Of a stretch of 64,000 bases of DNA, positions 29,944-52,619 are shown one piece after another. The notes beneath the pieces are model-generated. The model was not told where the DNA came from and did no database searches. It was given only the letters and a program-made list of their open reading frames with translations. Each line of letters starts with the position of its first letter. Position 1 is the first letter of the stretch. The DNA is taken from assembly GCA_000146465.1 (NCBI GenBank), contig CP001942.1. One strand, given 5' to 3'. The position numbers were made by a program, and so were the translations under genes.

Positions 29944-30015
29944 GCGTTGTTGGTCTAGTGGATAGGATAACAGCCTTCCAAGCTGTTGGCCCGGGTTCGA
30001 TTCCCGGACATCGCA
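29944..30015 (+). tRNA. tRNA-Gly (anticodon UCC).
   Basis: It folds into a cloverleaf by hand. The acceptor is GCGTTGT/ACATCGC with one U-U mismatch at 4:69. The D-arm is TGGTCTAGTGGATAGGA (A-box). The anticodon stem is ACAGC/GCTGT with loop CTTCCAA, giving anticodon TCC at 29977-29979. The T-arm is CCGGGTTCGATTCCCGG (B-box) and the discriminator is A. It is near-identical in layout to human tRNA-Gly-TCC. Confidence 0.85.
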
Positions 30016-48393: not shown

Positions 48394-49005
48394 CTAGTAG
48401 TCCCATCTGTAAAACAATCCATCTTTCATCTTTACAGCTCCTACAAACACCAAGCTCTTCAAGTGTCTATCGAAGTCTTCATTCAAAGCTTCCTCCGTAT
48501 CTGTCCCACGTCCTATTGCATCGGCAGCTAGTCTTTTCAGTTCTTCATAGTTGAATTTCTTGGTAAGCAGTTTGTAGATGATGGTGCTTGGATTTTCTTT
48601 GGATAAATACAACTCCGGGCTGAGTAAGGAAGATCTTATAGAAGCAAACACATCCGGCATAAATGAAAGCTCTACACCCCTGTTGCTGTATTCTCCCGCC
48701 AGCCTCCTCTCTATGTCTTTATAGTTCTCGATTCTTTCGCTCTTTTCTTCATCCGAACACATCACAAACTCAAATCTGTAGTGCTTGAACATTCTCATCT
48801 TGTAGAAGAAAAACTCAAAATTCACCACATAAAACAAGATCTCTTTTCCAAGTAGAAAAAGCTCTTTGAAGGCCTTCAGCGTAACATCTCCACTGGTAAA
48901 TTTCAAGACATACTTCTTTTCCGGACATATCACATAGGTTCTCTGCAGATCAGAAATAACCTCTGCATCGGGAACATTCACTGTTGAAACTATCTTTATG
49001 ATCAT
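48394..49005 (-). CDS. Hypothetical protein (203 aa).
   Basis: ORF only. Confidence 0.45.
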   Translation of the reverse strand: MIIKIVSTVNVPDAEVISDLQRTYVICPEKKYVLKFTSGDVTLKAFKELFLLGKEILFYVVNFEFFFYKMRMFKHYRFEFVMCSDEEKSERIENYKDIERRLAGEYSNRGVELSFMPDVFASIRSSLLSPELYLSKENPSTIIYKLLTKKFNYEELKRLAADAIGRGTDTEEALNEDFDRHLKSLVFVGAVKMKDGLFYRWDY

Positions 49006-49122: not shown

Positions 49123-49635
49123 CTACTCCTCTAGTCGATTACATATCCAATTTATTCCTTTGTGGACACCTAGGAATGACCTTGACTCCTCGTAAAGAAT
49201 AAACTCGATCTTTCCATGGCTTATCTCGTCGCAGGTCCTCTTAAGCTCTTGCACAGACTCGTTTCCATAGATGTTCGACTTGCATAGTACAACAATAACA
49301 TCTTTTGTCTTTGTGGCATCTTCTCCAATAAGCGTAATACACTTCTCGACAGAGGTTTTGTTGTCTGCATCCACAGCAAAGACGACTGCAGCAGAAAGGC
49401 CCATGTGGATCCCTCTTATCTCATAAAGGTCTGCATTGTCATCCAATGACTGGAAAATGAGCTCCATTCCATTTGCAATGCATGTGTCTTCTGAAAATGG
49501 CCGGAGAGATTTGTCTTCCTTGTAGTTCGAGACAGAGTGCTTCAGAACATGTCTCTGGTCTTCCTCCAGCCCCAGAAGAGCAACAACATACTTCTTTCTT
49601 GTGGCTCCACAGCATAGGGAAAGGACCCAATCCAT
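49123..49635 (-). CDS. Arf-like small-GTPase-fold protein with degenerate nucleotide-binding motifs (candidate pseudo-GTPase).
   Basis: 170 aa. It is collinear with Arf: KKYVVALLGLEEDQRHVL aligns with KEMRILMVGLDAAGKTTIL (P-loop lost), VVFAVDADNK with LIFVVDSNDR, VIVVLCKSNI with LLVFANKQDL (NKxD lost), and GINWICNRLE with GLDWLSNQL. Confidence 0.45.
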   Translation of the reverse strand: MDWVLSLCCGATRKKYVVALLGLEEDQRHVLKHSVSNYKEDKSLRPFSEDTCIANGMELIFQSLDDNADLYEIRGIHMGLSAAVVFAVDADNKTSVEKCITLIGEDATKTKDVIVVLCKSNIYGNESVQELKRTCDEISHGKIEFILYEESRSFLGVHKGINWICNRLEE

Positions 49636-49705
49636 TATTTTATGGGCAAAAAATTGACAACAAATACCTTCTTACCTACCAAAACTCTCCATTTAATAAA
49701 AGTAT

Positions 49706-50623
49706 TTATTGCTCCAGAAGATAACCCACTTCCTCTTTCAGAGTTCTACTCTTTTCTATAAGTATGGAAACCGCCTTCCTTAACAGGTACAGGGGATCCA
49801 GAAATACGCTGTTGATTGTAAAAAGAAAATGGTCCGACTTTCTTCCAATGAATACCTTGTCCTTAAACTCCTCATGCCTGAGTGCTTCCCTGCTCATGGT
49901 GTCCAGACGGGGATTACTTACATAAGCCTTCATTCTCCCATCGCTTTGCTTTACTTCTATGACTCCTTCTGAAAAGCATTTTTGAATCCTAAAGGCATCC
50001 TCATCAAAGAAGTCTCCTATCTCAATCAGCGGGAGAAGTCTGTACGTTGCAGGGCATACAGGACTCCATTTTGCATGTGTTTTTCCTGTATTCTTGGTGC
50101 AGACAACCTCGGCACTTATTTTCTGCCCATGGGCTAGCTTGAACATGAGTACTCTGCTGCTGAACTTGGCATTCTTTATCATTTCCCTCTGATTTCCTAA
50201 TGGAATCCATTTGATATCATCAGAGTACACATTCAGAACATCCTTATTTTCATTCTTAACATCAAGAGAAAACTTGAGGGAGTTCCTCTCGTTCATCTCC
50301 CCCTCCACAAACTCAAACATCTCGGGATCCACTTCCAGTGGAATTAGCCCTAGTCTATGTGCTATGAATTCATCCGGAAATACACTCTCGTTTTCCTTCA
50401 GAAAGACATCCTTGATGGCCATAGTCGGAACATCGTTGCAGAGTATGCGTCGAAGTGCATTGGCAAAGGAGCAGTCGACATTAATAAGATCAAACTCTAG
50501 CTTCTCCTTAGAGTACTCTGTTATCCTCAGCTCAACCTCCTCCACCATCTGCTCAAACGACTTTGTCTCTCCGCAATATAAGTCTGTGATTGTCTCCCTT
50601 CCCAACTTGTATATCTTCGACAT
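49706..50623 (-). CDS. RPC40: DNA-directed RNA polymerases I and III subunit RPAC1 (AC40).
   Basis: 305 aa. [27 protein letters not shown] aligns with [43 protein letters not shown] aligns with [37 protein letters not shown] aligns with [21 protein letters not shown]. Confidence 0.85.
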   Translation of the reverse strand: [305 protein letters not shown]

Positions 50624-50654: not shown

Positions 50655-52619
50655 TCATGTTCTCTCCTCCATCGGTCCCATGGTAAACACCTTGACCATT
50701 CCGTCGGCTCCTCCAGTGGCATACTTACTTCCATCCTCATCAAAAGATATCCTATTGACCCGCTTACTATGCTCCTTACTTCTTGTCCTAATGGTAAACT
50801 CTCCTCCTTGGAGATCTGCAGTTAACACCTCCCCAGATTCAAGTCCTATCAGGAGAAGATACTTCTTAGGTGAAAAGCTTAAGGACGTCACCTCGTACTC
50901 AAATCTAGACTCCCATTTCATTCCAAATTCAGGACCTTCATATACAAATATACTTCTGTCTCGAGAACACGTGGCGAGATATTTTGAATCATGGCTGAAG
51001 CTACAATCCCACACAACTCTCTTATGGTCCCTTAGTCTTTGAAAGAACTTAATGCTTTTGCTAACATTATAGATTGACACACTCTTGTCTTTGGAGGCTG
51101 CTGCCAGGTACTTTCCATCCCGTGAAAATACCAACCTTTCGATCCCATAGTCGTGTACTTCTATGTAATCCATCAGCTCAAAGTTTCTGTTCCATACAAA
51201 AATCCCTGAGAATTTCTTCAGCGACGACTTGTTACAGGAAACAATGAAATCCTTAGACACGGCAACATCAGATACATCAAAGTAGTGTCCATAGACCTTT
51301 CTTATCTCGTTGAAGGTGGCCACAGACAATAGCTGCTCATTGAGTGATTCAAAAGTAAAGTCTTCCAGAACTACGTTTGTTAAAGACAGTTCGGCACAAA
51401 CAGCTGCAAACTTCAAACTGTCGATATCACAAAAGAAGTCGTGTATAGACCTTCTCTGCCGGGAAATACCCATTTCCTCCAATGACTTACTCACGTCTTT
51501 TTCCTTATTTTCCACACTCAAGCATGTCATATAAAACACCTGTGTAGGCTCATAGATTCTTAAAATTGTTTCCTGTGCAGAGCTTATGAATTGAAGGTTC
51601 TCGGTATTGAGAAACCTTGCCGAGGTTAGCCCATATCCATGCTTCTGTGGCCTACCTACCTCATGCCCCTTGTAGAATATCCGGGACGTCATATCAAGCG
51701 AGGCCGTTAGGAGAAACTCATCTCTCCAGTCGATAGACCTCACTTCGTCGATATGGCCCGAAATAAAATTCTCCAGAACATCTCCAAACTTGTAAAACCC
51801 TCCAGAATTCGATTGTCCTACAATATAGTCTCCAGTCATTAGAACGTTAAAGAAGGCTCCTTCTCCGCCCAGTCTCATCACATCTTCCCACCTTCCAGAC
51901 TTCTTCTTCCAGTGGATTATCGACCCATCTCCAGATGAGCTAAGTAGATCTCCCTCTCTTGTCCACCACAGTCCGTAAACCCAGTCTGTGTGCCCATTAA
52001 GGGTTTGAATATGCTCAATCCATCCTTCTCCTTCAATAACTCTCCATATCTTTATGGTTTCGTCCTGTGACGCCGTGGCAATGTAAGCCTCTCCATCAAT
52101 GGAAACAGACTTGATGTCTTGGATGCTGTCTCTGTGCCCTTCAACTTCATCCCACAAAACACAACTGCCTTTTCCCCATAGCACATAAACACTCCCCTTT
52201 CTGCTCCCAATAAATGTTCTGTCACAAATCGTTGTTAAACACGTAGGAATCCATGTATTTTCGACTTCTCCCGTAATCACATTTCTGTCCATGTCATATA
52301 CGAAGGTTCTATCCATCGTACAGAACGCAGCACATGATTCCCTCATAAAACCAACCGCTTCAATACATCCTTCAAAGTCATGCTTCCTAACATCTCCGTT
52401 TCTTATTATATATCCCCTCCCATTCACATCTCCTGCCACTATCGTTCCATGGCTACATTCGACCGCATTCACATCGCCGTCCATACAAACTACAGAAAGA
52501 ACCTTTCTTTCGTCAGTTATGACTACATTCGACCTAGACCCATAGGCCATTCCATTCCCAAATGCTGCAGAGACCTTTGGCTTTCGTGTGCAGCCGGCAG
52601 ATATGAAAACAGAGTCCAT
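50655..52619 (-). CDS. ELP2: WD40-repeat protein, probably Elongator subunit ELP2.
   Basis: 654 aa with multiple WD repeats. The N-terminal VFISAGCTRKPKVSAAFGNGMAYGSRSNVVI aligns with yeast Elp2 IFIGANKQTQVSD...IVAFGAGKTIALW. Confidence 0.65.
   Translation of the reverse strand: MDSVFISAGCTRKPKVSAAFGNGMAYGSRSNVVITDERKVLSVVCMDGDVNAVECSHGTIVAGDVNGRGYIIRNGDVRKHDFEGCIEAVGFMRESCAAFCTMDRTFVYDMDRNVITGEVENTWIPTCLTTICDRTFIGSRKGSVYVLWGKGSCVLWDEVEGHRDSIQDIKSVSIDGEAYIATASQDETIKIWRVIEGEGWIEHIQTLNGHTDWVYGLWWTREGDLLSSSGDGSIIHWKKKSGRWEDVMRLGGEGAFFNVLMTGDYIVGQSNSGGFYKFGDVLENFISGHIDEVRSIDWRDEFLLTASLDMTSRIFYKGHEVGRPQKHGYGLTSARFLNTENLQFISSAQETILRIYEPTQVFYMTCLSVENKEKDVSKSLEEMGISRQRRSIHDFFCDIDSLKFAAVCAELSLTNVVLEDFTFESLNEQLLSVATFNEIRKVYGHYFDVSDVAVSKDFIVSCNKSSLKKFSGIFVWNRNFELMDYIEVHDYGIERLVFSRDGKYLAAASKDKSVSIYNVSKSIKFFQRLRDHKRVVWDCSFSHDSKYLATCSRDRSIFVYEGPEFGMKWESRFEYEVTSLSFSPKKYLLLIGLESGEVLTADLQGGEFTIRTRSKEHSKRVNRISFDEDGSKYATGGADGMVKVFTMGPMEERT

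Follow-up and report, generated by a model that had tools for sequence, protein, structure and literature searches.

Eint_010470 of Encephalitozoon intestinalis, a probable Arf-derived pseudo-GTPase of the microsporidian ArlEM family

Introduction

What is left of an Arf-like protein when the motifs with which it would hold a nucleotide have all been replaced? The question is raised by Eint_010470, an open reading frame (ORF) in a 64-kb stretch of chromosome I of Encephalitozoon intestinalis ATCC 50506; this whole stretch is called the window here. In a homologue search, the ORF product was 100% identical to the E. intestinalis protein Eint_010470, which public records annotate as an 'uncharacterized protein'. 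A preliminary description, written from the letters of the DNA, had taken it for an Arf-like pseudo-GTPase and had left its family unplaced. We found that its features fit those of ArlEM ('Arl specific for Eumicrosporea'), a family described in May 2026 (Vargova, Majnusova and Elias, BMC Biol 2026; PMC13393502). Eint_010470 is very likely a member of this family, which is restricted to the 'core' Microsporidia (Eumicrosporea), and has kept the GTPase fold. The authors of ArlEM had come to essentially this conclusion, so that the finding was known before; the literature searched yielded no mention of Eint_010470 or of its E. cuniculi orthologue ECU01_0590 (Q8SWM8).

Results

The nucleotide-binding boxes are replaced throughout the family

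The family was aligned by MAFFT to human ARF1, mouse ARL3 and human ARL2, and the G boxes were paired in this alignment; in it, Eint_010470 is collinear with the three proteins from Met1 to the C-terminus with small indels only. The preliminary description had reported that GLDAAGKT of the P-loop is replaced by GLEEDQRH, WDVGGQ of switch II by QSLDDN and NKQD by CKSN. The motifs GLEEDQRH, QSLDDN and CKSNI were verified by hand translation of the window DNA, and the first two replacements were confirmed in both the translation and the alignment. In the third, the loss of the motif stands but the register does not, as MAFFT pairs A-NKQD with C-KSNI and the pairing is uncertain by one residue; this shift is of no consequence, since NKxD loses both its Asn and its Asp whichever register is taken. 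Intact G1 (GxxxxGK[ST]), G3 (DxxGQ) and G4 (NKxD) boxes, which a functional Arf GTPase would carry, are missing from Eint_010470. Judged from its sequence, the protein is a homologue of the Arf family and not a functional member of it.

The loss extends to the relatives. The Walker A motif GxxxxGK[ST] is present in none of the 17 homologues, and none of them has NKxD at the G4 position. It had been proposed that orthologues with intact motifs would expose a sequencing artefact; all 17 family members examined share the motif loss, which is therefore not such an artefact. The P-loop replacement is itself a kept motif, G-L-(E/Q)-(E/D)-D-x-(K/R), whose net charge lies between 0 and -3 in every family member except one. 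Canonical nucleotide binding by Eint_010470 is thus not to be expected, a prediction that we consider likely to be right. The Arf-family signature that is best preserved is the C-terminal helix motif GINWICNRL (Arf1 GLDWLSNQL, Arl3 GMNWVCKNV), and in strand beta4 FVVDSND of Arf1 is paired with FAVDADN.

The fold and the family profile point to the Arf family

AlphaFold2 was run twice, with 8 close orthologues and with 17 family members. The predicted local distance difference test score (pLDDT) rose from 71.7 to 90.2 and the predicted template modelling score (pTM) from 0.76 to 0.87, and both models have the small-GTPase topology b1-a1-b2-b3-a2-b4-a3-b5-a4-b6-a5. In Foldseek searches of the PDB, the top ranks for both models were Arf1, Arl1, Arl6 and Sar1, with E values of about 1e-6 for the 8-sequence model and down to 7.6e-9 for the 17-sequence model. 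The latter superposed on Arf1 and Arl1 with template modelling (TM) scores of 0.69-0.70, at 10-16% identity among the Arf-family matches. Its TM scores were 0.68-0.70 with GTP-bound or nucleotide-free Arf1/Arl1 compared to 0.59-0.65 with the GDP forms, and this slightly better superposition may be a weak hint of a fixed, active-like shape in the model.

Profiles built from the whole family led to the same place. Alignment A3, the 17-sequence family set that includes the metagenomic relative P0012 and the Nosema/Vairimorpha members, was used as a profile against the PDB; the best 60 matches listed were all Arf-family chains, mostly over their full length (Arf1, E=1.2e-5). Against ARF1/ARL3/ARL2, hhalign gave A3 a probability of 93.5% and E=2e-7 over residues 13-169, and the profile of Encephalitozoon and Ordospora sequences alone aligned to Arf over its C-terminal half (E=1e-4). 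Significant similarity to the Arf family is thus seen with the family profile in the PDB, and with P0012 in Pfam (PF00025), but not with the single sequence, which gave 0 matches at E<=10 against Pfam and NCBIfam and no relevant match in the PDB with phmmer. With the 8-sequence alignment, hhalign returned a probability of only 3% against a single ARF1, and the Arf match of this profile in the PDB was insignificant (2x77, E=0.75) and ranked under a chance match to a CRISPR protein.

The collinearity with Arf and Arl proteins that the preliminary description had called clear is therefore correct as an alignment, but the single sequence carries no statistical Arf signal, and family profiles and structure are needed to bring it out. 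The Arf-like origin itself is borne out by the AlphaFold2 topology, the Foldseek ranks, the A3 profile and the Pfam match of P0012, and the structure prediction and Foldseek search that had been suggested as a check returned a GTPase fold with Arf1 and Arl1 on top. We hold with high confidence that Eint_010470 is Arf-derived. The A3 profile scores 17-28 bits for Arf1, Arl1, Arl6, Arl13B, Arl8 and Arl3, so that no paralogue stands out as the parent; the likeness of GINWICNRL to the Arl3 motif GMNWVCKNV may serve as a lead only.

The family is conserved and under purifying selection

Orthologues were found in E. romaleae, E. cuniculi, Ordospora, Nosema granulosis, Vairimorpha ceranae, V. necatrix and V. 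apis, and the V. necatrix protein is already annotated as an 'ADP-ribosylation factor-like protein'. Among 1.84 billion representatives searched exhaustively with HMMER, the Encephalitozoon/Ordospora profile matched only 8 proteins at E<=1e-3, none of them a canonical Arf; a third, word-indexed search with the 17 sequences added no further species. An intact ORF of 168-176 amino acids is present in 16 of the 17 sequences examined. When the Encephalitozoon/Ordospora, P0009, Nosema/Vairimorpha and P0012 clades were compared, M1, S6, C8, G22, L31, E49, A83 and C118 were identical in all four, and K15, D26, E58, S95, H140, I164 and L168 were common to three.

The comparison of E. intestinalis with E. 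cuniculi gave a pN of 0.08 and a pS of 0.66, and the ratio of non-synonymous to synonymous substitution rates (dN/dS) is 0.054, a value that is only approximate because dS is near saturation; the neighbouring gene for the RNA polymerase I/III subunit RPAC40 has a higher ratio of 0.086. The gene is under strong purifying selection, as expected of a functional pseudo-enzyme. The gene order CID, WD-repeat, RPAC40, Eint_010470, a 203-amino-acid ORF and DnaJ/zinc-finger is kept in E. cuniculi and Ordospora. In V. necatrix the order around the orthologue is not shared, and the context therefore gives no functional hint outside the Encephalitozoon/Ordospora clade. The neighbours themselves (an RNA polymerase AC40-like subunit, a WD-repeat protein and a DnaJ/zinc-finger protein) suggest no functional link.

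Some sequences recovered in the searches differ in length. P0014 (143 amino acids, from a Logan assembly) stops behind the alpha4 region, so that beta6 and alpha5 are missing; either its gene model is truncated or it is an ArlEM variant with an internal or terminal deletion, and such deleted variants occur in V. corneae (PMC13393502). P0004 (202 amino acids, from a Logan assembly) is Encephalitozoon-like, with 79% identity, and has an N-terminal extension of 32 residues unique to it; its start codon was probably mis-called, as the conserved MxW(V/I)LSLCC begins at residue 33. The long repetitive proteins P0011 (769 amino acids, E=9e-8) and P0013 (1197 amino acids, E=3e-5) match short segments of the profile and were rejected as chance matches inflated by repeats; P0011 does so in 13 stretches, one per repeat of about 55 residues ('RLYVRATVVFSDKEQAQKRVERC...').

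The N-terminus carries putative lipidation sites

The extension ahead of beta1 is only about 13-15 residues long in the AlphaFold2 models. Two of the eight residues that are identical family-wide, S6 and C8, lie in its acylation motif. The Nosema and Vairimorpha relatives start with MGNICSC, MGGICSC or MGSFCSC and P0012 with MGAVLSFC, and we take this MG-x-x-x-S start to fit the N-myristoylation consensus. In the Encephalitozoon and Ordospora members Gly2 is lost, S6 is kept and a Cys-Cys pair stands at positions 8-9, which makes MDWVLSLCC a putative relic of an N-myristoylation motif. No hydrophobic stretch of transmembrane grade was found in a 19-residue Kyte-Doolittle window, the maximum being 1.33 in the core and 0.57 at the N-terminus. 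As in the Arf family, the protein appears to carry an N-terminal lipidation extension in place of C-terminal prenylation, and it has no C-terminal CaaX box. Palmitoylation has been predicted for all ArlEM proteins, which have one to three Cys in their N-terminal extension (PMC13393502). Eint_010470 is probably lipid-anchored.

A metagenomic relative retains part of switch II

P0012 (176 amino acids; 1491-2021 of L001, contig Ga0466727_247496 of the Joint Genome Institute (JGI) metagenome 3300042655) was found over its full length by the Encephalitozoon/Ordospora profile, with E=9e-7. Its contig is 2.3 kb long, with a single gene called, 36-40% guanine plus cytosine and about 1 kb of ORF-poor sequence upstream. 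Besides its MGAVLSFC start, it shares with ArlEM the character of its P-loop (GIDEENKR), G4 box (VLCNSD) and C-terminal helix (GINWMCERI). Its switch II still reads VSGGEH, with the GG retained, apparently an intermediate state. It matches Pfam Arf PF00025 with E=1e-21 and 77.6 bits (cutoff 22.3), and in the PDB it matches Arl3 and Arf1 best, with E values near 4e-12 (Arl3 49.9, Arf1 49.4 and Arf6-type 48.5 bits). P0012 may represent a precursor or an ArlEM that is less derived; a sequence of this kind, with both the GG of switch II and a Pfam Arf match, is absent from the main text of PMC13393502.

Eint_010470 has the features of ArlEM

Six Arf-family groups have been distinguished in Eumicrosporea, namely Arf1, Arl1, Arl2, Arl8, Sar1 and the 'truly enigmatic' ArlEM (PMC13393502). 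ArlEM was recovered from every eumicrosporean examined and from no relative of the group; disruption of the G boxes was described, and the family was put forward as a new putative class i pseudo-GTPase (PMC13393502). Gly2 myristoylation was described for the Nematocida, Anncaliia, Vairimorpha and Nosema members (PMC13393502). ArlEM is highly expressed, with levels that exceed the median in both N. bombycis and T. hominis (PMC13393502), and the S. lophii gene SLOPH_2328 accounts for 3.1% of the transcriptome of germinated spores.

Eint_010470 agrees with this description at each point compared. It cannot be assigned to Arf1, Arl1, Arl2, Arl8 or Sar1 and is about equally similar to the Arf paralogues; G1 to G5 are disrupted within an Arf-family fold; the short N-terminal extension bears Cys (C8, C9), with Gly2 in the Nosema and Vairimorpha relatives (MGxxCSC); and no orthologue is recognisable outside Microsporidia. 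No difference was found. The earlier interpretation as a pseudo-GTPase is supported as well, by the motif loss in 17 of 17 members, by the dN/dS of 0.054 and by the same conclusion drawn for ArlEM (PMC13393502).

Features of the locus and neighbouring genes

The positions of the ORF and of its motifs are collected in Table 1. The sequence ahead of the ORF reads TTTGCCCATAAAATA-ATG, in which GCCC precedes the start codon by about 10 nt; we take this GCCC to resemble the CCC-like transcription signal of Encephalitozoon, a resemblance only.

Table 1. Coordinates in the window of the Eint_010470 ORF, its motifs and the adjoining intergenic stretch
Feature	Position	Strand	Residues or length	Basis or remark
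Complete ORF, Arf-like pseudo-GTPase (Eint_010470; probable ArlEM type)	49123..49635	minus	170 aa	ATG start
N-terminal extension MDWVLSLCC, putative S-palmitoylation (C8, C9)	49609..49635	minus	1-9	conservation, sequence
G1 box / P-loop relic GLEEDQRH, for GLDAAGKT	49549..49572	minus	22-29	alignment
G3 box / switch II relic QSLDDN, for WDVGGQ	49435..49452	minus	62-67	alignment
G4 box relic CKSNI, for A-NKQD	49270..49284	minus	118-122	alignment
G5 box relic EESR, for Arf1 TCAT	49180..49191	minus	149-152	alignment
C-terminal helix motif GINWICNRL	49132..49158	minus	160-168	alignments
Intergenic stretch upstream, RPAC40-like gene to Eint_010470 ORF	49636..49705	minus	70 bp	

Directly downstream lies the 203-amino-acid ORF (window 48394-49005, minus strand; 4626-5234 in L002, the E. 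cuniculi record, and 4642-5256 in L003), which had no Pfam match at E<=1e-3. Its position is kept in E. cuniculi and Ordospora and it is under purifying selection (dN/dS 0.11); it is probably a microsporidia-specific protein. On the other side, the gene calls of the E. cuniculi record give the WD-repeat gene (680 amino acids) and RPAC40 an overlap of 41 nt (L002 1013-3055 and 3015-3932), whereas the WD-repeat ORF of the window (50655-52619, minus strand; 654 amino acids from the first ATG) ends 31 nt ahead of RPAC40 (49706-50623, minus strand). This reflects either differing gene models or a genuine difference in compaction between the genomes. The sole tRNA gene of the window is tRNA-Gly(TCC) at 29944-30015 on the plus strand.

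Discussion

Several results weigh against placing Eint_010470 in ArlEM as an Arf-derived pseudo-GTPase. The assignment of Eint_010470 and ECU01_0590 is a matter of fit, reached by feature matching and elimination and not through a direct listing by the authors. Our homology searches failed to reach the named ArlEM proteins of S. lophii, T. hominis and V. corneae, and those of Nematocida were likewise not reached. When P0012 is left out, the hhalign match to ARF1/ARL3/ARL2 drops to E=1e-3 and a probability of 21%, and the profile of the Nosema clade alone gives no match to them. Finally, most members still have a basic residue where the P-loop Lys would stand (R28; K in Nosema, Vairimorpha and P0012), and its persistence leaves room for some non-canonical ligand binding. 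According to the reading that builds on this, a nucleotide or another small ligand would still be bound through a non-canonical pocket, and the protein would be an atypical GTPase or a pseudo-GTPase of class ii-iv. The replacement motifs GL(E/Q)(E/D)D and VLC(K/R)(S/G) are conserved, and such conserved replacements lining the pocket suggest that the region still matters. However, nothing is left of the Gly and Ser/Thr of the P-loop, the Asp and Gly of DxxG, the Asn and Asp of NKxD or the G5 box, the binding place of the phosphates is taken by two to three acidic residues, and an AlphaFold 3 model of T. hominis ArlEM with GTP/Mg left the ligand outside the pocket (PMC13393502). We regard a retained ligand pocket as improbable.

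Three other readings were rejected. A highly divergent beta subunit of the receptor for the signal recognition particle (SRbeta), which tethers SRalpha to the membrane of the endoplasmic reticulum, would be a distant relative of the Arf family with a related fold and a membrane attachment. The microsporidian SRbeta is extremely divergent and has lost G1 to G5 in most Microsporidia (PMC13393502), and P0012 has a sub-threshold match to Pfam SRPRB (E=3e-4; 20.5 bits, cutoff 25). Yet SRbeta always retains the N-terminal transmembrane helix by which it is anchored (PMC13393502), whereas Eint_010470 has no such helix and carries Cys-based lipidation motifs instead, so that we give this reading very little weight. 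The account in PMC13393502 also implies that a separate SRbeta gene with such a helix lies elsewhere in the E. intestinalis genome. Descent from Rab, Ras or another Ras-superfamily GTPase, with the Arf likeness convergent or an artefact of alignment, is slightly less credible still. Against it stand the top ranks of Arf1 and Arl1 in Foldseek, the Arf-only character of the best 60 matches of A3, the alignment of the Encephalitozoon/Ordospora profile to Arf and the score of P0012 over the Pfam Arf threshold, as well as the Arf-specific N-terminal extension, putatively lipidated, in place of a C-terminal CaaX box and the pairs VFAVDADN/FVVDSND and GINWICNRL/GLDWLSNQL. That the ORF has no function, being a chance ORF or a pseudogene in decay, might be argued from the loss of all catalytic motifs and from public records that say only 'uncharacterized'. 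The ORF is intact in nearly all of the sequences and the gene order is kept, expression of the family exceeds the median in N. bombycis and T. hominis and is very high in S. lophii, and the dN/dS, lower than that of the adjacent polymerase subunit gene, effectively refutes this reading.

Compared to canonical Arf and Arl proteins (Arf1, Arl1, Arl2/3), Eint_010470 has the same topology and length, a lipid-modifiable N-terminal extension, and the xVDxxD motif of beta4 and the G-x-(D/N)-W-(L/I) motif of the C-terminal helix. It differs in lacking GxxxxGK[ST], DxxGQ, NKxD, G5 and an N-terminal amphipathic helix of Arf length. The authors of ArlEM left its origin undecided and considered Arl13, for which HHsearch gave no support (PMC13393502). 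In our searches, the Arl13B match spans only positions 14-105 of the A3 profile and scores under Arf1, Arl1 and Arl6, and no Arl13 chain is among the best 60 PDB matches of P0012. Moreover, Eint_010470 ends right after alpha5 (residue 170) and has no coiled-coil or Pro-rich C-terminal extension such as that of Arl13. To our knowledge, Microsporidia have no cilia. The class i pseudo-GTPases include CENP-M and the pG1 and pG2 domains of p190RhoGAP (Stiegler and Boggon 2020, cited through PMC13393502). These belong to unrelated lineages of the superfamily and are soluble or embedded as domains, in contrast to the stand-alone and putatively lipid-anchored Eint_010470.

The most likely mechanism of Eint_010470 is that of a palmitoyl-anchored, nucleotide-independent membrane adaptor. 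Palmitoylation of Cys8 and Cys9 would anchor the protein on a membrane, and N-myristoylation of Gly2 would add to the anchor in the Nosema and Vairimorpha relatives. With the Gly and Ser/Thr of the P-loop, the DxxG of switch II, NKxD and G5 gone, and with the acidic residues E24, E25, D26, D65 and D66 apparently filling the phosphate/Mg site, the former pocket would be unable to hold GTP or GDP, and the domain would therefore no longer cycle. It would then present one fixed surface and, bound to the membrane, serve one or more partners as a constitutive adaptor. Since the G boxes are gone, no switch driven by GEFs (guanine nucleotide exchange factors) and GAPs (GTPase-activating proteins) is expected, unlike in canonical Arf and Arl proteins, and any regulation would act through the expression level or reversible palmitoylation. 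The adaptor role taken by itself, at which the preliminary description had also hinted by noting that conserved pseudo-GTPases usually serve as structural adaptors, strikes us as a fairly even call, while the favoured explanation as a whole, ArlEM membership together with this mechanism, appears very probable. A more speculative version, which we think rather unlikely, is that the acidic P-loop replacement and D65/D66 act as a built-in phosphate mimic that is paired with the basic residue and locks the Arf core in a GTP-like, effector-competent form, so that ArlEM would be a constitutively 'on', palmitoyl-anchored recruiter. Equally tentative, and separate from it, is the idea of P0012 as a 'missing link' to the ancestry of the family.

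To the published account of ArlEM, this analysis adds a high-confidence model of an Encephalitozoon member and a quantified estimate of purifying selection. It further adds the observation that the very few residues invariant across the family include some of the acylation site and of the acidic relic of the P-loop, and the apparently less-derived relative P0012, which may help to trace the origin of ArlEM. If P0012 is a 'missing link', it could resolve the ancestry that PMC13393502 left open.

ArlEM is one of about 12-15 Ras-superfamily genes kept by the most reduced eukaryotic genomes. It is among the most abundant transcripts of S. lophii spores, and it appears to have dropped nucleotide switching; it would offer a clean example from nature of a lipid-anchored pseudo-GTPase derived from an Arf. 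As the host has no ArlEM orthologue, the protein is a possible selective target. The membrane on which ArlEM resides and its partners, once found, would reveal membrane biology that is specific to these parasites.

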